Below, piece after piece: positions 4,490 to 58,125 of a stretch of 64,000 nucleotides of DNA (position 1 is the stretch's first letter; each line of letters begins with the position of its first letter). The stretch is from a virus (taxonomy: Duplodnaviria > Caudoviricetes): positions 1-64,000 of IMG/VR virus record IMGVR_UViG_3300033074_000233; one strand, given 5' to 3'. A program made the position numbers and the translations under genes. Under the pieces are notes generated by a model. That model saw only the letters and a list, made by a program, of their open reading frames with translations. It was not told the origin of the DNA and searched no databases.

Positions 4490-6100
4490 TCAATTACGAG
4501 AAAACGTAGAACCTCCGCCACCTCCACCACCCATTACTGCGGCAATTCCCTGTCCACGGGCAGAAGATACCTGTGATCCAGAGAAGCCACCCCCAGCAAC
4601 AATAGCAGCCAGGCCTCCACCTCCGCTGCGTTTCCTTGTCTGTAGGAAATTAAGTACGATCTCATTATCCAACAGAAAGGTCGAGGCCAATACCACAGCA
4701 CGGAATAAATCATCCGTTCTATTTGTTCCCTTCACTACGCTGCGCTTGGAATCCTGTACGGTCAAGCATTGCATTAGCAAGTGGGCCGAAGGCTTGAAGT
4801 CGAAACTATTCGGATAGCCTTCACTGACTGGGCCAATGATTTGTTCCACCGGCATTTCCAGTTTCGGGAAGAATATACGCTCGCCTTCAAGGTAGGAACG
4901 GAACAAAAGGAAATCATCGTACTTGACGGAGTATTGTTCCGTGACCAAGTTCAATTTAACGTCCTTCTTTTTCTTACCGTGAATATCCGTTGTGTCGATG
5001 CCCTTGTTGAAGTCTTCTTCCAATTTATGCAACAGGAATAGGCTGTTCCAACGGTCGGCTACTAGATAACGGACGTTGAAGGCTTTAATCATTTCCTCAA
5101 TACAGAACTTAACCACGGCACTATGGTTAATTACGTTCTCGCCTTTCTTGGGAATAATCTCCATAATGGCGCTGTAAACCACGTTCTTATCTTCGCGGTG
5201 ACCGACAGCGATTGCGAAACTGTTGTCGGAGAATCCAGCGTCGATTGCCATGACGGACGCAGGCTGACTGGACATTGGGTAACACTTAACTTTGGCCGCC
5301 CGGAATATCTTTCCGTCCGCGTTACGTCTGTGGATATATTCATAGTCTACCTTGTTCTTAACTAGAGTGAAGGCCTTGTTGACAACTTCCTCGTTGCCAA
5401 TGAAGGGTGCTGCGGTGAGCGGAGGTTCAGCGCCATAGTCACGCGCAGCCGTCAGCGGACTACTGCTAAAGGCATTGGCGATCTCAGGATGCTTACGTGG
5501 GAACTTCGGGTTGATTTCCCAAGTAGGTGCGTGAACCGCAAGGATGGTTTTGCTATGCCTGTTGTTAGTCACCAACTGCATGATTTTATCTTGCACGTCG
5601 GATGGACTGGATACGTTCAGGGCGTAGGCAGAAGGCAGGTTGTTGTAACCCTGTTTCATCAGGTCGTAAGACGCGCCGCGAACGGTTAGCAGTGAACGGT
5701 CTAACGCCGTGTAAATGCCGTCTGCCGAAATGGTGATCTTGCCTGAGGCGTTCGCACTGGCATCGAACCAACCAAGTTCGTCGATTGCGTAGATATAACG
5801 GGTACGACCACGCAGGGTACGTTGGTTAGGAACGGACGGATACAGCATCAGTTTCCGGTGACGGTAACTAATGTAGGTGTCCATCTGCTTGTACAGTTCC
5901 TCACCGTACTTGTTGTTGTAGTGCTTCATCAGTTTGTGGTATTCACAGTTATGAACCTGAATACCATTGGCATAATAATTATGGTGGTCCTTTACCTCTA
6001 TGTCATAGACGTGCCTAGTACCTACGGGTTTTATGGAAGTCACCCTAGACACCCGTATAGGCTTACCGTCAATGATAACCTCTTGTACACTAGCATTCAT
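4490..6100 (-). CDS. terL: Terminase large subunit, C-terminal fragment, preceded by split-intein C-half
   Basis: First 51 aa are IntC (VYDIEVKDHHNYYANGIQVHN/C); then LRGRT, Walker B YAIDELGWF, motif III SSP, RNase H-type nuclease acidic motifs MAIDAG, ADRW, TDDLFRA. Confidence 0.9.
   Translation of the reverse strand: MNASVQEVIIDGKPIRVSRVTSIKPVGTRHVYDIEVKDHHNYYANGIQVHNCEYHKLMKHYNNKYGEELYKQMDTYISYRHRKLMLYPSVPNQRTLRGRTRYIYAIDELGWFDASANASGKITISADGIYTALDRSLLTVRGASYDLMKQGYNNLPSAYALNVSSPSDVQDKIMQLVTNNRHSKTILAVHAPTWEINPKFPRKHPEIANAFSSSPLTAARDYGAEPPLTAAPFIGNEEVVNKAFTLVKNKVDYEYIHRRNADGKIFRAAKVKCYPMSSQPASVMAIDAGFSDNSFAIAVGHREDKNVVYSAIMEIIPKKGENVINHSAVVKFCIEEMIKAFNVRYLVADRWNSLFLLHKLEEDFNKGIDTTDIHGKKKKDVKLNLVTEQYSVKYDDFLLFRSYLEGERIFFPKLEMPVEQIIGPVSEGYPNSFDFKPSAHLLMQCLTVQDSKRSVVKGTNRTDDLFRAVVLASTFLLDNEIVLNFLQTRKRSGGGGLAAIVAGGGFSGSQVSSARGQGIAAVMGGGGGGGSTFSRN
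5948..6100 (-). mobile_element. Split intein C-half (IntC, 51 aa) of terminase
   Basis: Blocks F and G ending His-Asn; +1 Cys at 5945-5947. Confidence 0.95.
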
Positions 6101-7283
6101 TTAGGCGCTCTCCTTTTTCTCCCATAATAAGGAGAGTGAATTTGTAGCCTTGTTTTCTGCAGGCCTGACGTTTCGCTCCTAAGGATTTAGCAACACTTGC
6201 GGTATAGGAACTCTTAACTTCTATTATTCGATTTTGAGAAACTACAAATATGTCAGGATGATAAATACGATCCTTACCTTTCCAGGTATATTTAATCGTA
6301 GGCATGTCTGACTCAAATCCACAACGTATGTCCTTAGGCTTTACGCCTTTTGTTTTTATTATGTAGTCAAGAGCCTGCGGCTCATAGCCCTGTACTTGTA
6401 CCTTTCTCTTTCCAAGATTATAGGCCTTAAAGGTGTAAGCACTTTTTAGGTTCTTCTCTAGGATCTCTTTATTCTGTAAGGCGTAGTCAACGCCGTAGCG
6501 TTCGCGCATAGTTGCTCGGCTTTTTGCCTTAACCTCAGGTCTTTGGTTGCTGTACTCTACTCCGTATTTACACATAGAGTTAAACCGCATTTTATCCGGA
6601 GCACACTTAGGACAGCCAGACTTTTTTAGTAGGTTTCCGGGCAAAACTTTCCAGGTATGACTACATACAAGGCATTTTGCCTTAGTGTATTTGTTCATGC
6701 CTGGGTAGCCACCAACAAGACAAATTTTCCTTTTCTTTAGTTTTGCCCTTCTATAAAAAATAGCCTCAGGCATTAGTCTAGCCTTAGATATCCTTTCACC
6801 CACAACGCACACGCAACTTATATTTCCGGTTATTAGTGCTTTTGGGCTAGCTCCTTTCTCCTTGCCACAGAGTAGGCAGGCTACACGAAAACGAGAGTCC
6901 GTTTTCTTAGATATAAGGCGAAAGTTTTTATTTTTCTTGAGTGCCTTAGTTACAGATACAAAGGTAGCGTTATGCCGCTCAATCCAGCCTTTACTCTGCG
7001 TAACCCTATAAACACCGGTGCATTTTAAGGAACAAGTCTCATTAAACGGACTGTCTGGATTGTCGCGTCTGTTAGTAGAAAGTTTCGTAACCTTTTTTCC
7101 GCATACTTTACACTCCGGATAGCCATTATCAACTATATAAGCAGCAGCCTTCAAAGGCAGAGTTTTACATAAACTTTCTAGGCGTTTGGCTACCTTCTCC
7201 TCAAGAAAAGGTCTTATGGCCTTGAGGCTTGGAGTACGTCCTGTAGTTGTACGCTGTTCTTCGAGTGCAGAGATAAGAGTCAT
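6090..7283 (-). CDS. Free-standing putative homing endonuclease (Zn ribbons, KYGV-type repeats, PD-(D/E)XK domain) between the terminase halves
   Basis: Multiple CxxC; KYGVEY/RYGVDY repeats; C-terminal VQGYE...YHPDIF...IIEVKS; AT-rich codon use unlike flanking genes. Confidence 0.85.
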   Translation of the reverse strand: MTLISALEEQRTTTGRTPSLKAIRPFLEEKVAKRLESLCKTLPLKAAAYIVDNGYPECKVCGKKVTKLSTNRRDNPDSPFNETCSLKCTGVYRVTQSKGWIERHNATFVSVTKALKKNKNFRLISKKTDSRFRVACLLCGKEKGASPKALITGNISCVCVVGERISKARLMPEAIFYRRAKLKKRKICLVGGYPGMNKYTKAKCLVCSHTWKVLPGNLLKKSGCPKCAPDKMRFNSMCKYGVEYSNQRPEVKAKSRATMRERYGVDYALQNKEILEKNLKSAYTFKAYNLGKRKVQVQGYEPQALDYIIKTKGVKPKDIRCGFESDMPTIKYTWKGKDRIYHPDIFVVSQNRIIEVKSSYTASVAKSLGAKRQACRKQGYKFTLLIMGEKGERLNEC

Positions 7284-7295
7284 ATTGATACCTCA

Positions 7296-7325
7296 CGTTG
7301 TTACACTTAAATTAGTGTAACAACG
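7296..7325 (-). promoter_or_regulatory. Perfect 12-bp inverted repeat enclosing the promoter-like motif, directly upstream of the endonuclease SD
   Basis: cgttgttacact-taaatt-agtgtaacaacg; motif at 7306-7317; SD GAGGT at 7290-7294. Confidence 0.75.
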
Positions 7326-7331
7326 CAAAGT

Positions 7332-8429
7332 TTACAAGGTAACAACTAAGTCATCTTCCGTTAGTTCTGAGACTTTTTTCCAGATAACCGTAGTCCTATC
7401 CTCAGATAAACACCGAACTTTGTGTTCGTCTGTCGCCACTAGCACCTGACCCGAGTCTAAAACTATTTCTTTGCACTCCTGTACCCCATTATCGAACAGG
7501 TGCTCTACTTTATTTGAGCCTTCGAAGGTAGCAACGCGCATACCAGGCTTAATGTATTCAATCGCTAGGGTGGTACCATCTTCTATAGTTATCTGAGTTC
7601 CTTCTGCAATGCAATACCACGTACTGTCGGCAATAGCATCAACAATCGGTGTCCACAACAGTTCCACTGCACCAGCAAAGTTCAGCGAAACGAACGTAGC
7701 CGTCAAGGTCACGTTAGATAGGCCGGTGAACATTTCTGCTGGACGCTGTAGTTTGAGGTATCTGTGGTTGATGTAGGCAACCAAGAAAGAAGTGAACAAG
7801 GACTTACCAGAACGCTGACCCGCACAAAAGGCCAACTCGGAGTAAGGCTTGAGGAGTTTCTTTTTGACAAACTCGCGCTTGGTTCCTTTGCACTTAGGAC
7901 ATACTCCGTGTTCCATGAGTTGGACAACATCAGGGAAGTTCTTCGCCTGAAAGCCAACGGGAATGTTACGAATGTCCTTCATCACCTTGCCCTTAGTACA
8001 AACAGGGCAATACTCGCCAAATAGTTTCAGCGCAATCCACATCTGTCTAGCAAAGGGCTTAATACCAGTGAAGCCCCACGTCCGATCAAAGCAAAAAGCC
8101 CAAAAATTGGGCATAGTTGGGATATCTCTGTCGTCCACTTTCAAGTCTTTTGGAACCGGGGTCTCATCATCCAAGACCTCATCCAGCACCTTCTCTAGGT
8201 CTAGTTCCTTTCTCGCTAGTTCCTTGCTATCCTTCAAGGCGAAAGGTGAAGGTGCGTATCCTGTCGTAGAATCAATTTCTCCGCCATCCTTGAACGGAAT
8301 ACCGTTAGCATCCACGATTGAGATTTTGTGGGCACCCATAGGCGACCACTTTTCACACTTGTATTCGGCTCTTTTATTTGCGTAAGTACACTTCAGGAAC
8401 TTACCACAAGATAGGCAACTGTCACTCAT
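7332..8429 (-). CDS. terL: Terminase large subunit, N-terminal fragment, ending in split-intein N-half
   Basis: Adenine-binding PFARQ, Walker A AGQRSGKS, Zn-finger inserts; last 93 aa are IntN (CIAEGTQIT...ATDEHKV...) then TAA. Confidence 0.9.
   Translation of the reverse strand: MSDSCLSCGKFLKCTYANKRAEYKCEKWSPMGAHKISIVDANGIPFKDGGEIDSTTGYAPSPFALKDSKELARKELDLEKVLDEVLDDETPVPKDLKVDDRDIPTMPNFWAFCFDRTWGFTGIKPFARQMWIALKLFGEYCPVCTKGKVMKDIRNIPVGFQAKNFPDVVQLMEHGVCPKCKGTKREFVKKKLLKPYSELAFCAGQRSGKSLFTSFLVAYINHRYLKLQRPAEMFTGLSNVTLTATFVSLNFAGAVELLWTPIVDAIADSTWYCIAEGTQITIEDGTTLAIEYIKPGMRVATFEGSNKVEHLFDNGVQECKEIVLDSGQVLVATDEHKVRCLSEDRTTVIWKKVSELTEDDLVVTL
7335..7613 (-). mobile_element. Split intein N-half (IntN, 93 aa) of terminase
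   Basis: Block A CIAEGTQI; block B TDEH; acidic end SELTEDDLVVTL. Confidence 0.95.
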
Positions 8430-17341: not shown

Positions 17342-19273
17342 CTATGATTCGTAGTCGCTGAGGATTGGGTAATTTTCATCCAAATAGGTCTTCAACTTGG
17401 AGTTGTTCCAGTCACGATAGACCTGCTTGTACGCCGTGTCATAATCAATCTGCGGATACAGCGTACAGTGGTCCTTCAGTGTACGCTTAATGCACTCATC
17501 CAGACTGAATGCTTTACCCTTGAACGGACCCTTAGGCCCATGTATCTCCTCATCAAATCCTTTGAGCGACCAGTCCCATTTGTACGTCTTGTCCTGTGAC
17601 GCACCAAACTCCATTTCAATCTCACACGGCACCGTGAACTTCAGGTCAAAGTGCTTGTCGTAGTAGCCCTGAACACCCATAGTTGCACACCACTGCAGAA
17701 TCTGGGCAGTAGCCAGAGCCATATCAAAGGTGGCTGAGGTGAAGATGGAATCATGCACCATCACCTCAATACCAATAGGGCAGTGCGTGTCTTCGGTCGT
17801 TAGCCTTTTCAGTTTCAACAGGTACTCATAAATGTGCTGCTCAAACAGGCGAGCACCTGTATGACCAAAGTCTGCGCCCATGCCTTGAATCGGAGAGTTC
17901 TTGGCTCGACGATCCATTGCACCTGCGATACCTTTGTCACCAGTCAAGTGGCCGAACAAGTGACGACGACGGCCCAAGGCAGACTTGGCAAACAAGTGCT
18001 TACGGCCAAATTCGGCTGTCCAGTTCAACCAATCCGATGCTACACGGAATCGTTTGAAGAATCTGTCATACAGGTCTTTGGCAAAGTCGGCGGACTTCCT
18101 CAGGTCTTTGGCCAAAGTCTTATAGGACTTACCGTAAATTACACCGAACGCTACACCTTTTACTGCATCACGCATTTCGTCCGTGATCTGGGAGAAGTCC
18201 ACACCAAAGAAGAAATTCACGTTTATACGGTGAATGTCACCCTTGTTACCCAGTTCTATTGCAAACTTTGCCAGGCCTGTCTTAGCCCACTTCTGACGGA
18301 GTTTACGACCAATAGCAAATACACCAGCGAGAACCGTGTCACCGCTGATGATGGACCATACACGAACTTCGTGTGCGCTATAGTCCATCTTAATGATAAT
18401 GCACCCAGGCGGCGGTGCGAACGTGCGCTTAATGTGCTTCGCCATCTCACCGCGTTGAGGTACCTGCTGCAACGAGGGATCACTACTATTGGATCGTCCA
18501 GACAACACCTTAAAGAAGCCATAATTAGGACGCATACGACCGTCGATCTTACCGTCATCGGAGTCGATCTTCTTGGCGAAAGCATCCACGTACGAGGACT
18601 TGATCTTCTTGGCCTTCTCCAGCGTATTGAGTAGGGCTACTTCTGGAACTTCCTCGTACTTCTTCTTAAAGAACTTACCCAGACTTGGCTTCTTGGACTT
18701 CTTGCTTAGTTCAGGCTCAAGATCGAGCACGTCCACATACATAACAATCTTGTGCGCGGGCTTGCTTATATCGAAGATTCTAGGTGCCTTGTTGAACAAT
18801 CCTTTTCCAACAGGTACGTTCATATCGGCCAGCAGGATTTTATTGGCTTTAGCCGCAGCGTCTGTTGAGTTAAGTTGGTTCGTTATATCCTGAATAGCCT
18901 TTGAGATTGGAGACTCGCGTGTCTTCAAATAGGATAGGTACTTGCGGTCCATTGCAACACCACGTTGTTCCATACTGGCGAATACATGGATGTTGTTGGA
19001 CATTTGTCCAACGGAAACACGAATATGATCCTTAGAATAGGACTGGGTAACACCTTGATCACGGTATACCAGGTTCTTGGCACGCTCACGCTGCTTGTCA
19101 TGTATCGCAAGAATTGCCTGCGTATCCATAGCACAGTTATGTACTAAAACGGGGTTCTCACTAATTTCAGTAGAGACAAAGAGGTTATGATTATCCTCTA
19201 CTTCTATGTCACAGACCGTGGGTGTGTTCCCAAGGTTCGTGATACGTTTAATAACTACCGTTGCGGTGCCCAT
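17342..19273 (-). CDS. polA: Family A DNA polymerase, C-terminal fragment, preceded by split-intein C-half
   Basis: IntC (CDIEVEDNHNLFV...VLVHN/C); SGRSNSSDPSLQQVP, motif A MDYSAHEVR, motif B RDAVKGVAFGVIYG, NSPIQG, motif C VHDSI. SD GAGGT lies inside the antisense endonuclease ORF. Confidence 0.93.
   Translation of the reverse strand: MGTATVVIKRITNLGNTPTVCDIEVEDNHNLFVSTEISENPVLVHNCAMDTQAILAIHDKQRERAKNLVYRDQGVTQSYSKDHIRVSVGQMSNNIHVFASMEQRGVAMDRKYLSYLKTRESPISKAIQDITNQLNSTDAAAKANKILLADMNVPVGKGLFNKAPRIFDISKPAHKIVMYVDVLDLEPELSKKSKKPSLGKFFKKKYEEVPEVALLNTLEKAKKIKSSYVDAFAKKIDSDDGKIDGRMRPNYGFFKVLSGRSNSSDPSLQQVPQRGEMAKHIKRTFAPPPGCIIIKMDYSAHEVRVWSIISGDTVLAGVFAIGRKLRQKWAKTGLAKFAIELGNKGDIHRINVNFFFGVDFSQITDEMRDAVKGVAFGVIYGKSYKTLAKDLRKSADFAKDLYDRFFKRFRVASDWLNWTAEFGRKHLFAKSALGRRRHLFGHLTGDKGIAGAMDRRAKNSPIQGMGADFGHTGARLFEQHIYEYLLKLKRLTTEDTHCPIGIEVMVHDSIFTSATFDMALATAQILQWCATMGVQGYYDKHFDLKFTVPCEIEMEFGASQDKTYKWDWSLKGFDEEIHGPKGPFKGKAFSLDECIKRTLKDHCTLYPQIDYDTAYKQVYRDWNNSKLKTYLDENYPILSDYES
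19136..19273 (-). mobile_element. Split intein C-half (IntC, 46 aa) of DNA polymerase
   Basis: Ends VLVHN; +1 Cys at 19133-19135. Confidence 0.93.
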
Positions 19274-20350
19274 ATGAAAATTACCTCAGAACAAAAGAAG
19301 TTCCTGTCTCAGTATCAGAATAAGTCGAAAATAAACTGGTACGAAATTAAGCGAGTGTACCCTGAAATACATGACACTTTACAAGACAAAGCCCAGAAGA
19401 AAAAAGTAAGGCCAAACAAATTACTGTATATTCTTGTATTTGGACACCCCAAATGTGCAGGTACTAACTGTGAAAGCACTAATTTAGGATTCAAGAACTT
19501 TAAGCGGGGTTTCGATAAGTTCTGCTCGAAGAAGTGCGCTAATAGTTCGCCTGAGTCTAATGCTAAGCGTGAGCAGACCTTCCTAAAAAACTACGGTGTT
19601 ACTAACCCAGGTAAGTGCGAGAAAATCAAAAGGCAGCGTCGAAAAACTATGGTGAAAAGGTACGGTGTCGAATACACGGCTCAGTCCCCGAAACTGCGTA
19701 AGAAAATGGAAAACACCTGTTTAGAGAACTACGGCGTGACCTCTCCTATGCAGTCTAGCGTGGTTAGAAAACGCTGCGAGGCTACGTCAATAGAACGCTA
19801 CGGAGTTGCAAGCCCAATGTCAGATCCAAGTGTCCAAGCAAAGTACAAAGAAACCTGCCGAAAAAAGTATGGAGTAGAACATCCGTTTCAGGATCGTGAG
19901 GTTTTTGAGAAGCAACAGAAGTCAGGTTTCAGCCTAAAGAAGATAACTATAGCAGGAAAGAAATACCAACTTAGAGGCTATGAGTCTGATGCCGTTATAT
20001 ATCTGCATAAGAATCTTAGAGTAAAGCCAGAGCATATACTAACTACATCGAAAGATGGGCTTCCAACGATACGATGGACAGACAAGAAGGGCAAAGGTCA
20101 TGTGTATCATCCTGATCTTAAAGTTAAGGTTAAAGGAAAGTGGTTCTTGGTTGAGGTAAAGAGCGATTACACCTTAGGACTCCGCAGTGACGGTAGCAAG
20201 ACCATGTTTTACGTTGCAAGACGCAAAGCCCAAGCGTGTATTGACGCTGGTTATAGGTTTAAGTTACTCCTAGTGCAGAAAGGAAAGGTCTCTGTTGTTT
20301 CTGACTTCCACGAAACTAAACGAAAGGACCTTATATCACGGTACTGTTAA
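19274..20350 (+). CDS. Antisense free-standing putative homing endonuclease between the polymerase halves
   Basis: Only convincing plus-strand gene. Five YGV repeats; C-terminal LRGYE...YHPDL...LVEVKS; paralogue of 6090-7283. Start taken as ATG 19274 (ORF is open from 19187). Confidence 0.85.
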   Translation: MKITSEQKKFLSQYQNKSKINWYEIKRVYPEIHDTLQDKAQKKKVRPNKLLYILVFGHPKCAGTNCESTNLGFKNFKRGFDKFCSKKCANSSPESNAKREQTFLKNYGVTNPGKCEKIKRQRRKTMVKRYGVEYTAQSPKLRKKMENTCLENYGVTSPMQSSVVRKRCEATSIERYGVASPMSDPSVQAKYKETCRKKYGVEHPFQDREVFEKQQKSGFSLKKITIAGKKYQLRGYESDAVIYLHKNLRVKPEHILTTSKDGLPTIRWTDKKGKGHVYHPDLKVKVKGKWFLVEVKSDYTLGLRSDGSKTMFYVARRKAQACIDAGYRFKLLLVQKGKVSVVSDFHETKRKDLISRYC

Positions 20351-21877
20351 TACCTTAATTTTCTCTCCGTCAATCAGGTCCTTAACGCGGACGTATTCTT
20401 GTCGTGTCTCTGACCAAACTTTGTGGTCCTCTGTAAGACGTATCGTACCCCCCTCGTACTCGATCTCAAACATATCCTGAGTAGTCGTGTGTGTAGACAC
20501 GTTTAGACAGTTTTTGTACTCGGTCTTGTTCGTTTCGTGGTTGAATGAAAGGACTTTGCCATAAGCATCTTTATCTAGAACAAAGTCTTTCAGTTTAACT
20601 TTTCCCGTCTCCGTTACGACGTAGGCTTCTGGATCTATGCAGTAGTCTTGGAAGTCCGGATCAAATAGATCAGTTGCTTCCATGTTGCCCCGATCCTTCT
20701 TGGAGAAGCCTGCGGTATAGTAAAAATCGTTACCGTAGGCACAGGTTACCTGTGCCAATCCACCCATAGGGTACTCAGTGTCTTCTAGGAACCGTAGGGT
20801 TTCATCGTGGGCATGCTCGCCTGCTTGAACGTCATACACTGGCCAGTACATGAACGGAATACCTAGAGCCTGTTTGACCTGTGTTATGTCAAACTTTGCG
20901 TTGAAGGCGATCAGGTATTTCTTGTAGTTCATATCCACCTTACGCATGAAGAACTCGCGTAGGCGTTTCTGTATGTATGCAATTTCCTTAGGCGAGAAAG
21001 GGGTATCCTTGTGTAGAATAGGAACCACAAAGCCCTTGTCCTTGTCAACAGAGAACTGGACGATCAGGAGTTTGTTTTTGATGCGGTTCAGGTTTGCTGT
21101 TTCTGTATCGAAGGCAATACGATCAGCGTTTTCGATAATCTCCATCATACGGTCGAACTTCTTGATGGTGTCGATCAGGTGTGCCTTAACCTGAACGTCA
21201 ATCGCCCATGGAAGTTTGCCGTGGATGAGAGAGGAGATATTGCGAGAGAAATAGCCGAGAACGTAAGCGGCCTTGAGCACACTTTCGTTATCGTTGTCAT
21301 CTTCCTCGTCAAGATTCTTAGGCGGTGTCAGGGAATCAGCGTAGTCGATTGTTGAACAGACCTTACGCTTCTTACCTCCTAATTCAACCTTGTGTACCCA
21401 GCCCATCTTGCAAATGGCATTCTCAACCTTGTGATTGAGTAGAAACTTGGTTGGATTATCGCCTACCAAGAGAATATGGGTTGGGTCATACTTCTCGATG
21501 AAGCCTCTTACACGCTTGGCTGCTGTGGAATGCGACTTCGCTCTGTCATCCGGGTCCAGATGGTAGTTCTTGAAGAAATTGAAGTTGACCGCTGCGAAGG
21601 CGACGTCCTTTTCCTCAAGACCATAGGGTTCGGCTATGGACTCTGCGTACTCATAGCAGTTCTGGAGTGCAGTAAGGGATACACCAGAGAGGAGAGCACC
21701 GTTTTTCAGGTCCTCAGTAGATACGTGTTCCAGTACGAACAGGACACGCTTTTTCGCCCGCTTCCAATTCTTCTCAATTGGAAGGGTAAGATTGAATGGC
21801 TTGCAGTCTTTGGAAAGACGAGCCCAGTAATCAGGAACCTCATTCTGAAATGAGATTCTTGCTATCGACTCAAACAT
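20336..21877 (-). CDS. polA: Family A DNA polymerase, N-terminal fragment (UDG-like domain plus 3'-5' exonuclease), ending in split-intein N-half
   Basis: ExoI IAFDTET, ExoII AFNAKFD, ExoIII Tyr right before the intein; last 101 aa are IntN (CIDPEAYVVTETG...LTEDHKV). Confidence 0.9.
   Translation of the reverse strand: MFESIARISFQNEVPDYWARLSKDCKPFNLTLPIEKNWKRAKKRVLFVLEHVSTEDLKNGALLSGVSLTALQNCYEYAESIAEPYGLEEKDVAFAAVNFNFFKNYHLDPDDRAKSHSTAAKRVRGFIEKYDPTHILLVGDNPTKFLLNHKVENAICKMGWVHKVELGGKKRKVCSTIDYADSLTPPKNLDEEDDNDNESVLKAAYVLGYFSRNISSLIHGKLPWAIDVQVKAHLIDTIKKFDRMMEIIENADRIAFDTETANLNRIKNKLLIVQFSVDKDKGFVVPILHKDTPFSPKEIAYIQKRLREFFMRKVDMNYKKYLIAFNAKFDITQVKQALGIPFMYWPVYDVQAGEHAHDETLRFLEDTEYPMGGLAQVTCAYGNDFYYTAGFSKKDRGNMEATDLFDPDFQDYCIDPEAYVVTETGKVKLKDFVLDKDAYGKVLSFNHETNKTEYKNCLNVSTHTTTQDMFEIEYEGGTIRLTEDHKVWSETRQEYVRVKDLIDGEKIKVLTVP
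20339..20641 (-). mobile_element. Split intein N-half (IntN, 101 aa) of DNA polymerase
   Basis: Block A CIDPEAYV; block B TEDH; followed by TGA. Confidence 0.93.
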
Positions 21878-21966
21878 ATATGTGCTACCTTTAAGGTAAA
21901 AGTTCTATACAACGATCTGTATTTACAGTATCGAAGTAGGACGTCCTTGTCCCAAAAGTCCTTCAA

Positions 21967-29761: not shown

Positions 29762-30619
29762 TTACACCACCGAATGGCTGTCGATGATCTTCTCCAACTC
29801 CTTGTAATACTCAGGCGCGTAACTGAACACGGTTTTATAGTAGGCCTTCATTTCCGCAGGGTTCCACGAATCCGGGTTGTACGTTACAGCAATCTGCTTG
29901 CTGCGAATGTACTCCAGGTCCGAACCGTTGAGGAAAGCGGATTCAACAACCAGCTCCGGGTTCAGGTCAACGCGGTCTTGCGACTCCACGTCAACTACCT
30001 GCATGGTGTCTTCGCTTTCTTCGTCGCTGGCGCTGTCGGTAGCCAGTACATAGCCGTGCGACAGTTCCAGTTTCTGCGGGTGAACGAAGGCCACGTACTC
30101 GTTGTTCTGTGCATCAGCCAGCGCCATGCGAGCCAGAGCAGGAACGTCGTGTCTGTGATGCTCATTCTTCAACGAGGCCAGAGCAACCAGTTCACTCAGC
30201 GATTCCTCACTGTGACGAGCCAGGTACTTGTCTTCACCTGCAGTGTGGACTTCCCACAGACTGTTGTCCGTTTCATCCATAAGCAGGTTGGAAGCCATAG
30301 CCTTGAAAGAAGCGGCAGCAGCGGCAACGTAAGGCTTGATTTCCACGTTGCGGGCAATGAAGCCAACAGCAGCAGGAACAGCGGCGTTCGGAATCCAGCG
30401 GAACGAGCCTTCTACCGGACGAGCGTGACCGTGGAACAGACTGGCCAGTGCATTGAAGCGCTGGTTGTTGTCAGCATCAGCCGTGTTGAAGGCAACGATT
30501 ACCTTGCACAGGTTGGGGCTGATTTCCTTGTAGTCCTGGATGGAAGCAACGACCAGAGAGGTCGCGGCCTGCATACGAGCAACTACGCGGTCCATATTGA
30601 GTTTCTTACCAGATTGCAT
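29762..30619 (-). CDS. Putative virion structural protein
   Basis: 285 aa, strongly biased codon usage, AGGAG SD, own terminator. Confidence 0.55.
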   Translation of the reverse strand: MQSGKKLNMDRVVARMQAATSLVVASIQDYKEISPNLCKVIVAFNTADADNNQRFNALASLFHGHARPVEGSFRWIPNAAVPAAVGFIARNVEIKPYVAAAAASFKAMASNLLMDETDNSLWEVHTAGEDKYLARHSEESLSELVALASLKNEHHRHDVPALARMALADAQNNEYVAFVHPQKLELSHGYVLATDSASDEESEDTMQVVDVESQDRVDLNPELVVESAFLNGSDLEYIRSKQIAVTYNPDSWNPAEMKAYYKTVFSYAPEYYKELEKIIDSHSVV

Positions 30620-30728
30620 TTTAGAACTCCTAGGGTAGGTTTACCCATTTTGATTGTCCCTTTCGGAACGGCGTGTGTTTACCTCAGAGGGTACGCTTTG
30701 GAACATTTACAGGTGGAACAAAAATCAT

Positions 30729-31427
30729 TTAGCCTACTAACTCGCGGTAAGCCTTATAGACCGCATCTGTAGTGAGTCCATGCTCACGAATAGTGCGACC
30801 GTAATCGCCTAGTAGATCCTGAATATCACTAATTTCTCCTTCAGCGCGCATAGCACGTTGTGACGTTAAGATGTCTTTGGCAATGTCCTTGGCAGTCCGC
30901 TTTTTAACTGGGGTCTTCTTGGCTGCTGGTTTGCTAGCAGGCTTCTTGGTAGACCGCTGAATATAGTAGCCGCGTTTTTCCACAGCATCTAGGTCGTTTT
31001 CGTCCTCGACAGCAGGGTTCGTTGCCTTCTTCAATTTCGGACCAGAAAGTTTCTTTGGTACTACGGCAGGCTTGGCCTTGGTCTTCGGCGCTTCTGGAGC
31101 CTTATCTTTCTTCTTACCGTACTTGGAGTTCGGGTGAAGTTTCAGGTACTGGTCCTGTTGCTTCTTATCGAGCGACTTCCACCATTTGTCGCCAGCATCA
31201 GCAGCCGTTTCTACTGAGGACTGAGTCTTTTTTGCTTTGTTACGTTCCTTAGCCCGGGCTTCTGCTTGGGCCTTGGAGGAATAGGACTCGTAGGCCTTTC
31301 CAGTGTTATCACCAAATACACACCAGTCGCCGGTGTCTTCGTCTTTCTCAGCATAAAACTCAGTGTCTTTTCCATTGCTTCTAGCCGCAGTTTCTACTCT
31401 TGCGCGAACCAATTTATAACGACTCAT
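30729..31427 (-). CDS. Lys-rich hypothetical protein with KLVRA/VETAA motifs (possible internal head protein)
   Basis: MSRYKLVRARVETAA, second VETAA; K/P/A-rich linkers. Confidence 0.65.
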   Translation of the reverse strand: MSRYKLVRARVETAARSNGKDTEFYAEKDEDTGDWCVFGDNTGKAYESYSSKAQAEARAKERNKAKKTQSSVETAADAGDKWWKSLDKKQQDQYLKLHPNSKYGKKKDKAPEAPKTKAKPAVVPKKLSGPKLKKATNPAVEDENDLDAVEKRGYYIQRSTKKPASKPAAKKTPVKKRTAKDIAKDILTSQRAMRAEGEISDIQDLLGDYGRTIREHGLTTDAVYKAYRELVG

Positions 31428-31544: not shown

Positions 31545-32486
31545 TTAAGCGGCGCGATTCTTTTCATAAACACGAATCCTTTTGTATAATTGCTTCTTGG
31601 TCATTACAACAGTCCAACGTTTTTCTAGGTTGTCTTCCCAAGAAACAAGTTGAAGATTTGCAGGATGTGCAATAACTTCGGGTGGAATTTTATGCTCAAA
31701 GCCTTCTTTTATGCCAAATACATGATCTATTTGTAGTGCGCCTTTAACTCCACACTTACCACGTTTTGAGAGTAGTTTCTTTGGCAAATCGTTTTTACCA
31801 AATCTGCTTGTTAATGAATGAACTTTGTTCCTGTATTTGGAAAAGGCCTTTTGATCTTTTACTTGATAGCCCATCTTAACTCTAGCGGCTCGACCTTTTC
31901 TAATAATTTCTGCTCTTACTTTGTCTAGGTGCATTATGTGTTCGACGCCATACTTCGCTAAGAAAGTTGCTTTAGTTTTAGCCCTGGATTTAGCCTTGAA
32001 CTCTTTTGATCTTGACTCGCGTTTTAGCCTGCGCTTTTCATGTACCTCATCTAGGTATGAGGGATTGGATACTCCATACCTCTTTTTCATTCCCTTGATA
32101 CGGGCCTTAGTTAGTTTTTCTTGGTAGTTTGGACCTAACCTTCTTTCCAAGGTTCTTCTTTGGCCGTCTTTTATTTTCTTTATCTCGGACTTTGATTTTG
32201 AAGACCAAGCCTCTCTTACTTTTTCTCGCCAAACATCTTTTACTTTTGAGTTAAGTGTACCACAAGTTCTAGAGCAGTGTTTAATGAAGCCTCGTTCTAG
32301 CCCAAGGAAGTGTGTTTCATTACTACAGCCTTTCCTTGCACACATACCTTCAGTGTCTTTTGCTCTGTATTTTATGTAGTAGTCTCTTACTTTTAGATTG
32401 TGTTCTTTTGATATGTGTATTCCCAATCCATTATAGGTTCTTGACTTGTATCCACAAACCTTGCAGGTACGAATAATAACTATCAT
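31545..32486 (-). CDS. Free-standing HNH homing endonuclease with Zn finger and YGV repeats
   Basis: C2H2-like N-terminus; RYGV/KYGV repeats; C-terminal QIDHVF...HPANLQLVSWEDNLEK; very AT-rich. Confidence 0.8.
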   Translation of the reverse strand: MIVIIRTCKVCGYKSRTYNGLGIHISKEHNLKVRDYYIKYRAKDTEGMCARKGCSNETHFLGLERGFIKHCSRTCGTLNSKVKDVWREKVREAWSSKSKSEIKKIKDGQRRTLERRLGPNYQEKLTKARIKGMKKRYGVSNPSYLDEVHEKRRLKRESRSKEFKAKSRAKTKATFLAKYGVEHIMHLDKVRAEIIRKGRAARVKMGYQVKDQKAFSKYRNKVHSLTSRFGKNDLPKKLLSKRGKCGVKGALQIDHVFGIKEGFEHKIPPEVIAHPANLQLVSWEDNLEKRWTVVMTKKQLYKRIRVYEKNRAA

Positions 32487-53985: not shown

Positions 53986-54924
53986 TTAACTAGATAAGCC
54001 ATTGAGTTCATTGAAGGCTACCTTGAACTTTGTCCATGATAGTTCTGTCCAATTCTTGGGAATTTTGTAGCATTCCGTGCAGGTTCTAGTTTTCCTAGTG
54101 GAAATTTTTGGCATTAACAAGCAGAAGTCGTAGCCAAGTTCACTGCACCTAATAGCCTTACGCCGGTTTGTATAGTACGTTGACTTAACCTTGAACAGCG
54201 TATACGTGGACTTTACTTCTACGATCCGATTAAGGTCTTTTATATAGAGGTCAGGATAATATCTTTTCCAGTGGCCTTTATAGAGGTATCTTATGGTTGG
54301 AATATGCTTGGATAGACCGGCTTCGATTCTATCAGGATTTACCTTTTTTATCTTGGTCAAATACCTTAGGGCTGCATCCTCATAACCTTGAACGAAAAAT
54401 TTCTTTCCACCGAGTTTGATGCGTCTCCTCTCAAAAAAGTTACCTTTTGACCTGTCTGTATTGGAACAGAGCCTATCAAACAGGTCGCTCTGATGCTTAC
54501 TAAGGCTATCTTTTTTGCACTCGGGACACCTGTTGTATCCAGCCTTAGAGGTACAAACGTCAGAAGGTTTCACATCCCAGGAACATGAACACTTCAGGCA
54601 AGTGTGTAGAGAGGCTATTAGCATACCTTTGTAAGGCTCTGCTAATGCAACTTTTTTCCTTTTGCATATTACCGCATACTTGGCCTGCGCTTGAATCGAC
54701 CTAACAGACTCAGGCCCGACATGGGAGCAAGACCTGCATCCACTTCCAGTACGGGTTATGAACGAGGGTTTAGTCTCCCAAGTACGCTCGCAAGTAAGAC
54801 ACTTATGACTACTTGCAACCTTCCAGCCCTCATATTTAATACACCTGATTCCTTTCTTGGCTATGAGGGCCTTGTATTCCTTTTCTCTTTCTGAGCGATC
54901 ATACCTTAGATCGTAATTCGCCAT
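53986..54924 (-). CDS. Free-standing putative homing endonuclease (third PD-(D/E)XK paralogue)
   Basis: Zn ribbons; VQGYE...YYPDLY...IVEVKSTYT; AT-rich; inserted between tail genes. Confidence 0.85.
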   Translation of the reverse strand: MANYDLRYDRSEREKEYKALIAKKGIRCIKYEGWKVASSHKCLTCERTWETKPSFITRTGSGCRSCSHVGPESVRSIQAQAKYAVICKRKKVALAEPYKGMLIASLHTCLKCSCSWDVKPSDVCTSKAGYNRCPECKKDSLSKHQSDLFDRLCSNTDRSKGNFFERRRIKLGGKKFFVQGYEDAALRYLTKIKKVNPDRIEAGLSKHIPTIRYLYKGHWKRYYPDLYIKDLNRIVEVKSTYTLFKVKSTYYTNRRKAIRCSELGYDFCLLMPKISTRKTRTCTECYKIPKNWTELSWTKFKVAFNELNGLSS

Positions 54925-54951
54925 TTGATACCTCGTCTTTTAGGACTCAGT

Positions 54952-54963
54952 ATCAAATTAGTG
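54952..54963 (-). promoter_or_regulatory. Promoter-like motif CACTAATTTGAT
   Basis: Intergenic, 28 nt upstream of the endonuclease ATG. Confidence 0.55.
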
Positions 54964-54975
54964 AAAAGTGTCGCT

Positions 54976-55479
54976 TTATTCAGAATGAAAATCGTAGTTG
55001 AACGTAACCGTATAGAGAACCGGTTGCGAACCCGAACCGTCGAGGGATGGCTCGTCCAACGTCTGCGGGAATACCCCGTAGATATTGATAGTACGGACTG
55101 CGTTGCCTTTGTCATCATACAGAGCCAACTGGGCAGTGGCTTCGTAGTTGACCTTGAACTGCCCCGTGTTAGCGGCTACGTTCCGGGCGTATTCAATCCA
55201 ACTACGAATCGCATCCCGTGTCGTCATGTCACGGGTTTCGAGGAACGTAGCAGTGAACTGGTTGGTATACATTTCGCGACCAGCATACTTCACGGTTGCT
55301 CCGTGAAGAGTGATGGGCACGTCCTCTACCGCTACGCCCGGCAGAATTACGTTTTGACACTTAATCGTAAGCGGCCGGAAGTCCGCTCCCGACGGTACAA
55401 GCGGGATAAACAAATCCCAGTTGTACGACAGAAGCGGGTCTGGCAGACTACGGATGTCGGAAAGAGAAGTACGTGCCAT
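54976..55479 (-). CDS. Tail tube protein (gp19-like)
   Basis: 167 aa directly after sheath; VKYAGR, YGVFP, YTVTFNYD. Confidence 0.9.
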   Translation of the reverse strand: MARTSLSDIRSLPDPLLSYNWDLFIPLVPSGADFRPLTIKCQNVILPGVAVEDVPITLHGATVKYAGREMYTNQFTATFLETRDMTTRDAIRSWIEYARNVAANTGQFKVNYEATAQLALYDDKGNAVRTINIYGVFPQTLDEPSLDGSGSQPVLYTVTFNYDFHSE

Positions 55480-55494
55480 TTTCGTTGTCTCCTA

Positions 55495-58125
55495 TTAGAC
55501 GTTGCCGCCAGAGGCGATCAGTTCCTGGAACGAAACACCCTGTTTGGTAATAATCATCTGCAACTGGATCACCCTTGCCGGAAGGATCGGTTGAATGTAA
55601 ACATCTACGTTCAACTGGCCGATATTTGCAATCTGTGGCGGGTTGTTCGACGAATCACTGATTACGGCGTAGTCAGCAATACCGCGACCGTTCTTGATTA
55701 CCTCAAGGAACTGTGCGATAAGCGTAACAATCTGCCGCTTCAGGAAGTCATCGTTCGGCTCGAAGTTGCTAAACAACAGCGCCTGCGATACCGATACCTC
55801 GATGATATCCAGCATACGACGCACGTTCACGAAGGACAGTGCGGACGTTTTGGATTGCAGCGTGGTTTGTTCCCATACTGCGATACCGAGACCCGGGAAG
55901 TTGCGGACGTAGTTGATCTGCGACGGAGCCAGCAAATCACGCTCGGCTTGGTTGTACTTGTAGCGAACACCAAGCACGTTCAGCGTACCACGATTCAAAC
56001 CAGCAGGTGCGTACCACACTTGCGACGTGAAGTCGGTGAAGGCGTACACGGCACCAACGTAGCCAGAAGGCGGAACGTAGATAACCAGGTCGTTGTAAGG
56101 ATCGTTGATACGCAGGTCCGGCGTGTACAGCGTCGCACGGTTGCTGTTGATATTCAGAACGTCACGACGATACACGACTGCCTGAGTCGCGTCCTGATAG
56201 GAGGTCGGTACGTCAAGAATCGCAATACAGTCCTTACGAGCCAGACACACGGAGTTCATCTTCAACTGGATAGCGGCTTGTTGCGTACCACCCTCCATGA
56301 GGATACGAACCGTGATCTTTTCCGGGTCAATAAACTGATCCCAGCCAGTAACGAAGGCACTCGCGCTAATGCTGCTATAGGCATCACCGTCAGCACCGCC
56401 AGCGAACGGGGTATCGACAACACTGAGAACTCCGTACTGGCCGTTGGTATCAGTGTAGGTGGTATTCTTGACGGCGCGAACTACCTTCGAGAAGGTATTT
56501 ACGCGGGTCTCGATATCCATCTGCTGGCCAAAGCCATCAAGTTTCTCGATCAGGGAAATGTCATATTCCTCGATCGGTTGGCTGCTGCTGATGCTGGTGT
56601 CAAAGATAGACAGGCGGAGCTCGTTGCTCAGCGTGAAGTTGGCACTCGGAATCGTTGCCGTAGTTCCGACAACAGTACCGCCATCAGTGAACGAAGCGTT
56701 ACCCGAACTCGGCTGATTCACGGAGCCAAGATACAGGTACGTGCCGTTAACAGTAGCAGGACGACCGTATATCTTGTAGTACGCTGCACCTTCGACACGG
56801 GTAATTGTCAGGACAGGCGACCCACCAAGAAGGCCCACGATAGCAGACACACCGGTTAGTGCATCCGTTTCTTGACCCAGCGAGTTAACCGCAGTTGCCT
56901 TGTAGTAGTACGTGGCAGCAGCCAGCGTACCAGTTCCAGTGGGCGGAGTCTGCGTGCCCGTACCAACTACTGCGCCAAGATCAGCATAGGCCACAGTAGG
57001 TGCAGTCAGCGTGGTAATCAGGCGGCTAGCAACAACAGTAGGTGCCGTTTGGGCACGATATACCTTGTAGTAAGCGGCGCCAGGAACTGGCGTAATCGTT
57101 ACTGTCGGGAAATCCGTCAGCGAGGCGATTACCGCAGAAGTAGCAGCCAGAGCACTTGTCTCATTACCAAGCGCATCTACTGCGGTTACTTGATAGGTGT
57201 AAGTACCTGCGGTCAGCGTACCTGCACCAGCAAGCGTAATCGGCGCCGTAATCGCAGGCGCATAGATCGTGCTTACCGTAGGTGCATACAGGTTCGTTGA
57301 GATAATGGAAGCCTTCAACGTGTCTGCATATACACCAGGGCCAATGGCATACAGGAAGAAAGCATCTTCGCTGATTGTGGGACCAACGGGAGGACTCTGG
57401 GTATCAGCGCCGAGAATAGCACCATCGTCAACATACACAGCATCACCCGTGGTGGGCTGAGCAACTGAGGTGATGTAGCGTTGAGCAACAGCGGTTACGT
57501 TGGTCTTCTCACGATAGACCTTGTAAGAAACGGCGCCAGCAACACGGGTGATGGTAACAGTTACCTTCTGGCCAAGCGTCAGACCAGCAACAGCGGTCGC
57601 TACAAGCGCAGCAGTCTCTTGGCCGTAGGCGTTTACTGCGGTGACTTGGTAGGCGTAGTCACCAGCGATCAACGTACCGCCAGTGCCACCCGCAACTGCG
57701 GAAGCCAAAGTCGGAGTAGTAACTGTAGCAAACTCCACGCTATCAGGCGTAGTGCCGCCAGTGACACCGCCAAGTACGGTAGTCGTAGGACGGGTTACGT
57801 TGACACCATTTTCTGATGCTGTCGTGATGTTCACGCCACACTTGATACCCGAGTATGCGTAAGCGCCTTCAACTACGCGGACAACGTAGAGTTGGCTCGA
57901 ACGCTCAAGGAAAGCAAGAGCAGCATAGGCACCGTATCCATTGGTCGGATGCGGATTGCCGAAGGTGTTGATGTACTCTTGAGTGTTGGTAACCAGAACT
58001 GGTGAGTTAATCTTGCCACGCTTGGCATGAAGAACGATTGCACCAACAGAGGTTGAAGTGGTCGGAACGACTTGGCTCAAGTCCTTCTCGACAACGTACA
58101 CTCCAGCGGATTGATAAACAGGCAT
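55495..58125 (-). CDS. Contractile tail sheath protein (gp18-like) with three inserted beta-sandwich repeats
   Basis: SAGVYVVEKDLS, PPSG, WYAPAGLNRG, FVNVRR, FEPND motifs. Confidence 0.95.
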   Translation of the reverse strand: MPVYQSAGVYVVEKDLSQVVPTTSTSVGAIVLHAKRGKINSPVLVTNTQEYINTFGNPHPTNGYGAYAALAFLERSSQLYVVRVVEGAYAYSGIKCGVNITTASENGVNVTRPTTTVLGGVTGGTTPDSVEFATVTTPTLASAVAGGTGGTLIAGDYAYQVTAVNAYGQETAALVATAVAGLTLGQKVTVTITRVAGAVSYKVYREKTNVTAVAQRYITSVAQPTTGDAVYVDDGAILGADTQSPPVGPTISEDAFFLYAIGPGVYADTLKASIISTNLYAPTVSTIYAPAITAPITLAGAGTLTAGTYTYQVTAVDALGNETSALAATSAVIASLTDFPTVTITPVPGAAYYKVYRAQTAPTVVASRLITTLTAPTVAYADLGAVVGTGTQTPPTGTGTLAAATYYYKATAVNSLGQETDALTGVSAIVGLLGGSPVLTITRVEGAAYYKIYGRPATVNGTYLYLGSVNQPSSGNASFTDGGTVVGTTATIPSANFTLSNELRLSIFDTSISSSQPIEEYDISLIEKLDGFGQQMDIETRVNTFSKVVRAVKNTTYTDTNGQYGVLSVVDTPFAGGADGDAYSSISASAFVTGWDQFIDPEKITVRILMEGGTQQAAIQLKMNSVCLARKDCIAILDVPTSYQDATQAVVYRRDVLNINSNRATLYTPDLRINDPYNDLVIYVPPSGYVGAVYAFTDFTSQVWYAPAGLNRGTLNVLGVRYKYNQAERDLLAPSQINYVRNFPGLGIAVWEQTTLQSKTSALSFVNVRRMLDIIEVSVSQALLFSNFEPNDDFLKRQIVTLIAQFLEVIKNGRGIADYAVISDSSNNPPQIANIGQLNVDVYIQPILPARVIQLQMIITKQGVSFQELIASGGNV

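Follow-up and report, generated by a model that had tools for sequence, protein, structure and literature searches.

An antisense DUF7487 nuclease gene interlocked with the split-intein halves of a jumbo phage DNA polymerase

How can an essential gene be broken by a nuclease gene that faces the other way and leaves no spacer, with both halves still expressed? The question is raised by positions 17,342 to 20,350 of a 64,000-nucleotide stretch of DNA (the window), which covers positions 1 to 64,000 of the virus record IMGVR_UViG_3300033074_000233, a jumbo phage genome made of a single contig of 215,992 bp. Here the family-A DNA polymerase is encoded by two minus-strand genes, PolN (513 amino acids, aa; matching Pfam DNA_pol_A_exo1) and PolC (643 aa; matching DNA_pol_A), and between them a gene for a putative homing endonuclease lies on the plus strand. 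Our preferred answer, which we hold to be rather probable, is that this is a 'fractured gene' with an inverted homing-endonuclease gene: the halves would be joined by trans-splicing, the nuclease would be made late, the cassette would home as a unit and the tight junction would go back to a founding insertion.

Two half-genes and a split intein

The two polymerase genes carry pieces of an intein at the ends that face each other. The first 412 aa of PolN (the N-extein; 20,642–21,877, minus strand; Pfam DNA_pol_A_exo1 and phrog_17) are colinear with the intact allele P0039 and hold the 3'-5' exonuclease as far as the tyrosine of a YxxxD motif, which we take to be the ExoIII motif. The last 101 aa (the N-terminal intein piece, IntN; 20,336–20,641, minus) start with Cys1, contain the block B sequence TEDH and match Pfam Intein_splicing weakly. 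PolC opens with the C-terminal piece of 46 aa (IntC; 19,136–19,273, minus), the His-Asn end of which precedes a +1 cysteine (H45, N46 and C47 are invariant in 16 homologues), and continues with the C-extein, 597 aa (17,342–19,135, minus) that begin Cys-Ala-Met-Asp, contain the DNA_pol_A domain (E 2e-49) and are 81% identical to P0039. Cys1, a block B TxxH, the terminal His-Asn and the +1 Cys are hallmarks of class 1 split inteins, and IntN matches the NrdJ-1 split intein in the PDB (E 5e-5).

Close relatives carry one intact polymerase gene of 1016–1024 aa (P0039, 81% identical, stands in the same gene order), and the intein pieces are missing from these intact alleles. Once IntN (101 aa) is taken off PolN and IntC (46 aa) off PolC, the remaining 1009 aa align with the intact P0039, P0040 and P0042 across a gapless junction, placed between the Tyr and the Cys of the YxxxD motif. 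The intein is not contiguous: PolN stops at 20,336, and stops are found in frame upstream of PolC. The sequence shows PolN–IntN and IntC–PolC to be separate genes, the exteins of which join exactly into the intact polymerase of the relatives. The closest polymerase relatives belong to jumbo phages such as Motura, PaBG, Lu11, Y3 and JA11, with best matches 30–37% identical.

The complex predicted for IntN and IntC scores 0.93, versus 0.02 for the best control; at least 99% of contacts are shared between runs, and the partner has a predicted local distance difference test value (pLDDT) of 91. The mark used for such predictions is reached by 51 of 78 solved pairs and by 2 of 108 mismatched pairs, and our pair probably passes it by resemblance to solved inteins. 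We propose that IntN and IntC would associate and splice in trans, giving back a polymerase of 1009 aa. Two intein pairs occur in the window and, in view of the second locus (4,490–8,429, minus), must be orthogonal or else cross-splice. The terminase gene of the window is fractured in the conventional way, with a nuclease of the DUF7487 family on the same strand, and another intein C-terminal signature is found at 125,816–128,188 of the genome (plus), within a 790-aa open reading frame (ORF).

The nuclease and its interlock with the polymerase genes

The nuclease (358 aa; 19,274–20,350, plus) matches Pfam DUF7487 (E 1e-41) and PHROG homing-endonuclease families, the latter matches being confined to its N-terminal half. 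It is laid out as N-terminal helices, a Cys-rich motif, YGV helical repeats and a C-terminal PD-(D/E)xK domain (P280 D281, E294 V295 K296); the AlphaFold2 model (pLDDT 91) likewise displays helical repeats followed by a C-terminal domain. Foldseek alone gives no match below E 0.001. The best fold match of the C-terminal domain is TnsA (Z 8.8, root-mean-square deviation 3.9, 126 positions aligned), with Hjc, Vsr and I-Ssp6803I ranking lower. The active-site motif reads YHPD...EVKS and is not of the EDxHD type (Vsr-like, I-Bth0305I), and weak matches to Tn7_TnsA-like_N turn up among members of the family. We regard the protein as a putative homing endonuclease with a DUF7487/TnsA-like PD-(D/E)xK domain. 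It shares fold and PD...EVK motif with the N-terminal PD-(D/E)xK endonuclease of Tn7 TnsA, but has no transposase partners and carries a long N-terminal region, Cys-rich and with helical repeats, which presumably binds DNA.

The gene stands alone in its orientation. An earlier note on this DNA had called it the only credible plus-strand gene of the 64-kb window, and with a dicodon model trained on the genome it is indeed the only one with a clearly positive score: among 55 plus-strand ORFs of at least about 90 aa in the window, the nuclease scores +14 to +19.5 and the next best +0.4. Two long ORFs, at 29,774–30,772 and 54,925–56,859, get scores of −119 and −130 and match nothing in Pfam or PHROG; apart from the nuclease, the genome block from 1 to 71.9 kb is entirely minus-strand. 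The same note had left the choice between starts at 19,274 and 19,187, and this is now largely settled in favour of 19,274. Homologues align from the Met at 19,274, and the public gene call likewise has 358 aa. The 29-codon extension that the alternative would add (19,187–19,273, plus) has in-frame stops in the homologous loci L010, L011 and L012 and a negative, non-coding score. Read on the opposite strand, the ATG at 19,187 is the His codon of the conserved IntC sequence D-N-H-N, which is why it recurs in several homologues. Two further genes of the window have DUF7487 domains (53,986–54,924 and 31,545–32,486, both minus), the first with a copy of motif B, described below, 41 nt upstream.

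The hexamer CATATG at 19,271–19,276 supplies both starts back to back, that of PolC on the minus strand (19,273) and that of the nuclease on the plus strand (19,274). The Shine-Dalgarno (SD) sequence of PolC, GAGGT (19,283–19,287, minus; anti-SD energy −7.0), lies 9 nt before the PolC ATG and within nuclease codons 4–5 (Thr-Ser). Conversely, a weaker SD for the nuclease, GCGGTG (19,263–19,268, plus; −5.4), lies within IntC codons 2–4. At the other end, the nuclease gene runs to 20,350 and so covers the IntN stop codon (20,336–20,338), the two genes meeting tail to tail with an overlap of 15 nt. The back-to-back starts, the placing of the PolC SD and the overlap had all been described in the earlier note and are borne out by the sequence. 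Over 13 loci, which are incompletely independent of one another, the median energy is −6.4 kcal/mol for the IntC SD and −5.4 kcal/mol for that of the nuclease. The control for both, the antisense strand at ordinary gene starts, gives −2.7 (p 4e-4 for IntC and 0.002 for the nuclease); in these 13 loci the strength of the nuclease SD does not differ significantly from synonymous shuffles. Read off the codons, the ribosome-binding sites are reciprocal, each gene having its SD in the codons of its partner.

In our preferred reading, the tight junction would be the footprint of the founding insertion, the 5' end of the nuclease gene giving IntC its start and SD, and its 3' end giving IntN its stop; a C placed before the nuclease ATG would at once create an ATG on the reverse strand. 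The interlock would also fix the ends of the nuclease gene in place. The first 115 nt or so hold the SD of PolC and a likely promoter for it, while the final IntN codons and the stop fall within the last 15 nt. The earlier note had concluded that the element is hard to delete. This stands for the two ends and fails for the middle, about 950 nt that could be removed, or in which the reading frame could be disrupted, without touching the polymerase, since the interlock guards just the ends of the gene; versions of the junction with wider gaps (18–105 nt) occur as well.

Interlocked ends also lend themselves to the idea that the nuclease gene is a silent relic, kept solely for the ends that the polymerase genes need. 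We find this highly improbable: the ORFs are full-length and free of stops, the catalytic motifs are invariant at about 35% identity, and the nuclease's own SD and promoter motif are conserved. Retention through selection for activity is the more plausible account, because PD and EVK are invariant in 12 of 12 homologues.

Putative promoters inside the partner genes

Upstream of its genes, this phage genome is enriched in two motifs, A (CTGTAAAGT) and B (with a CTAATTT core). Motif A has 46 strong sites in the genome, 44 of them co-oriented with genes, and is found 5' of PolN (21,919–21,932, minus), the clamp, the clamp loader, SSB and the helicase. Motif B, for which a position weight matrix (PWM) was built on 11 intergenic sites, has 22 strong sites, 21 of which follow the local gene direction; it precedes the portal, tail-sheath and baseplate operons as well as two other DUF7487 genes of the window. 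These neighbours suggest that B is a putative late-type promoter and A a putative replication-phase promoter. The phage group to which this genome belongs has been reported to encode its own sigma factor (PMC7412058). A scan for sigma-70 promoters and intrinsic terminators found none for the nuclease, its matches being fewer than in shuffled sequences, and a literature search brought up no description of motif B. The sequence TATGAT, at the codons for D-N-H-N, was considered as a −10 box and ruled out, as those codons vary freely.

Among the 22 strong B sites, a single one lies antisense inside a gene. This site (CTCACTAATTTCAGT; 19,157–19,171, plus; PWM score 19.5) occupies the codons of a Glu-Ile-Ser loop of IntC and points at the nuclease, the start of which is 117 nt away; it lends indirect support to the antisense transcript supposed in the earlier note. 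A score of at least 11.9 is reached at 103–132 nt upstream of the nuclease in 9 of 13 loci, and 11.1 in L175, which is out of sample. The codons of the loop are frozen: Ile is ATT in 10 of 10 and Ser AGY in 8 of 8, as compared to 45% and 36% in the exteins next to IntC. Codon use is mixed in almost every other conserved column of IntC, the further exception being Phe, which is TTT in 8 of 8. The same-strand locus L020 has no motif B in its IntC. All this points to a loop constrained at the DNA level as a promoter. A prediction that an IntC without the Ile-Ser loop should have no antisense nuclease failed: the nuclease is present in the P0121 and P0100 loci, where the called gap is wider and motif B weak or missing, and P0141 matched the positive half of the prediction.

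On the opposite strand, an A-like site (TTGTAAAGT core; 19,375–19,388, minus) lies inside the nuclease gene, 115 nt before PolC, and is a possible, moderately supported PolC promoter, scoring 9.7 when left out of its own PWM (p about 0.007). Strong A sites occur in 5 of 20 loci and in 1 of 40 control windows. Under our preferred reading, the polymerase halves would be transcribed along with the replication genes from motif-A promoters, and the nuclease, which could not be translated from polymerase mRNAs, would be made only from the late-type B promoter inside IntC. In T4-type phages, hairpins that hide the ribosome-binding site on early transcripts set the middle or late timing of nucleases (Edgell et al., 2010; PMC2988022). 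Here, orientation would do the work of these hairpins of same-strand endonucleases, because polymerase mRNAs could not yield nuclease.

Recurrence, rival readings and kinship with known systems

Is this layout an accident of one genome? Nine IntC-headed PolC-like proteins or clusters were examined irrespective of any nuclease, and an antisense DUF7487 gene lies upstream in eight of them; the remaining one has a same-strand nuclease of another type. IntC-led lookups and nuclease-led searches together gave 20 distinct loci where the DNA of the 5' junction can be seen. The start-to-start distance is 0 in five, −2 in six (sharing CATG), +1 in two and 18–105 nt in seven; the zero-gap junction is also present in L011, L016 and L023, and in L012 it takes the form CACGTG, both starts being GTG. 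The tails overlap by 14–119 nt. As other divergent gene pairs of the window genome are 55–719 nt apart, finding 13 of 20 loci within −2 to +1 nt is not a matter of chance, although this count carries some selection, since in seven loci the start codons were picked by homology, with the junction in view, and not taken from a gene caller. Median identity among loci is about 34% for the nuclease and 45% for the intein. The L010 junction has an 18-nt gap with CCTCGGAGG, an inverted repeat that reads as a Shine-Dalgarno sequence on either strand.

Such tightness invites a regulatory reading. The facing promoters A (19,388, minus) and B (19,157, plus) are about 230 bp apart, so that their transcripts would be complementary over both ribosome-binding sites, and the cassette might have been co-opted as a switch, its junction being kept for the coupling of facing transcripts: late transcription of the nuclease would shut off PolC, or early PolC RNA would silence leaky nuclease expression. 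The geometry of the two sites fits, both SDs fall inside the predicted overlap, and the junction is held within 3 nt despite large divergence and differing host genes. This is countered by the seven loci with gaps of 18–105 nt, by the moderate support for site A in the window and its differing position among loci, and by the fact that an inherited founding junction accounts for the tightness without regulation. We judge the switch unlikely. In a bolder version, split intein and antisense TnsA-like nuclease would form a distinct class of composite mobile element, a self-contained cassette that moves from gene to gene and where intein codons double as late promoter and SD of the nuclease, nuclease codons as promoter, SD and start of the downstream half-gene, and the facing transcripts as a timing switch on an essential host enzyme; this we mention as a speculative possibility, on the doubtful side.

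The host genes that are split belong to four families: polA (at three sites), an SNF2 helicase, a Cas4-like exonuclease and an SF2 helicase (at two sites). In L175 (2,368–8,105) and L021 (1,940–7,281), two insertions break polA into three or more ORFs. The nucleases of the polA locus L010 and of the Cas4-like locus L136 are sisters (support 100/96), which indicates movement between genes, and across all loci intein and nuclease distances are correlated (rho 0.73, p 0.0004). Intein-free polymerase alleles exist among relatives. We propose that the nuclease would cut such alleles near the insertion site during co-infection, and that IntN, nuclease and IntC would then be copied as one unit, occasionally reaching new genes.

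Cultured phages provide further cases. In Dickeya phages JA11 and JA33 the helicase comes in two ORFs, which Day et al. (2018; PMC6143709) left unexplained. Between the two ORFs sits an antisense DUF7487 gene that lacks annotation, and one helicase half bears IntN, the other IntC (in JA11, L168:4,552–7,658, that is MH389777 128,551–131,657, with the nuclease at 129,486 to about 130,589, plus). Dickeya phages JA13 and JA29 carry a one-ORF allele. The same layout is found in the helicase of Yersinia phage fHe-Yen9-02 (L178:1,277–4,374), with a DUF7487-like antisense nuclease, and in that of Vibrio phage GR11A (L181:901–5,080), where the antisense nuclease is of the EDxHD type; split inteins break both helicases at the Walker B Asp-Glu.

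Did the nuclease travel with the split intein at all? It might instead be a free-standing antisense homing gene that landed repeatedly in a permissive mini-intein loop. Free-standing DUF7487 genes do occur in this phage group, one of them antisense in PaBG; the same nuclease family splits the window's terminase intein on the same strand; in GR11A the antisense nuclease within a related split intein is an unrelated one of the EDxHD type; and the Mantel test within the core set is weak. For the helicase loci, independent landing probably holds. As a general account it is distinctly improbable, because repeated insertion would not give what the core loci share across different genes and sites, namely related inteins, junction geometry and a promoter-bearing IntC loop. 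The PaBG gene (PaBG_00189; L179:2,890–3,714) encodes a DUF7487-like nuclease, is placed in antisense between sbcD and a DHH gene and may represent a precursor state.

Besides the selection in the junction count, several observations weigh against our preferred reading. Within the core set, intein and nuclease co-diverge weakly (rho 0.24, p 0.08), and a comparison with intact alleles shows no clear dip of identity around the insertion site of the kind expected from co-conversion. The antisense label is clustered on the nuclease tree (5 changes, 14.6 when shuffled), and with 5 changes the tree neither shows nor excludes a single origin of the layout. L011, L015, L143, L149, L176, L177 and the helicase loci have a weak motif B or none, and the terms 'late' and 'early' are deduced from neighbouring genes alone.

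How does the fractured gene with an inverted nuclease relate to systems already known? Fractured genes were defined by Dassa et al. (2009), with all three ORFs on the same strand. As at our locus, a conserved enzyme of DNA metabolism is split by a split intein within one locus of phage origin, the halves keep their original order and orientation with IntN on the N-half and IntC on the C-half, a free-standing endonuclease gene lies between them, and an overlap supplies the downstream start. However, those genes have a spacer of 27–51 nt and an RNA hairpin before the nuclease, the 3' end of which makes the IntC start, whereas here a DUF7487/TnsA-like nuclease gene lies antisense without spacer, its 5' end providing the start and SD of IntC and its 3' end the stop of IntN, and IntC itself contains a promoter motif. 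An antisense nuclease without spacer makes the locus a variant, not a plain fractured gene.

Non-canonical inteins with an antisense LAGLIDADG or Vsr-like endonuclease ORF have been described (Gosselin et al., bioRxiv 10.1101/2025.01.02.630785, citing Gorbalenya 1998). They share an endonuclease ORF opposite to the intein strand and between the splicing halves, but are described as full inteins, whereas ours is divided over two genes, which makes trans-splicing and an additional start necessary, and its nuclease is of another family. An endonuclease gene also lies between polymerase halves in Pseudomonas phage MIJ3 (PolB split by a split intein, with HNH; PMC6892783) and Aeromonas phage 25 (split gene 43 with seg43, no intein; PMC2988022), but on the same strand in both. 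In T4, promoters of the host gene within the nuclease ORF favour nuclease retention at segG/gene 32, a likeness to our locus, while the antisense segD has neither an identified promoter nor an intein, unlike the window's antisense nuclease with its conserved promoter motif in intein codons (PMC2988022). A literature search, with most subscription journals outside it, turned up neither a split intein holding an antisense nuclease gene interlocked at the start codons nor any paper that mentions DUF7487 by name.

As the aligned loci stand, the antisense-nuclease layout is real, conserved and widespread. It would be a second answer to the problem posed by Dassa et al., the one-step break of an essential gene by an endonuclease with both halves still expressed: the coding sequence of the inverted nuclease gene would itself provide the start, the SD and the stop. 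The split-intein reading also explains why Dickeya phages JA11 and JA33 have their helicase in two ORFs and, since JA13 and JA29 carry the one-ORF allele, homing and its timing can be tested in cultured phages. Finally, about 20 natural split-intein pairs come out of it, and DUF7487 gains a candidate function.

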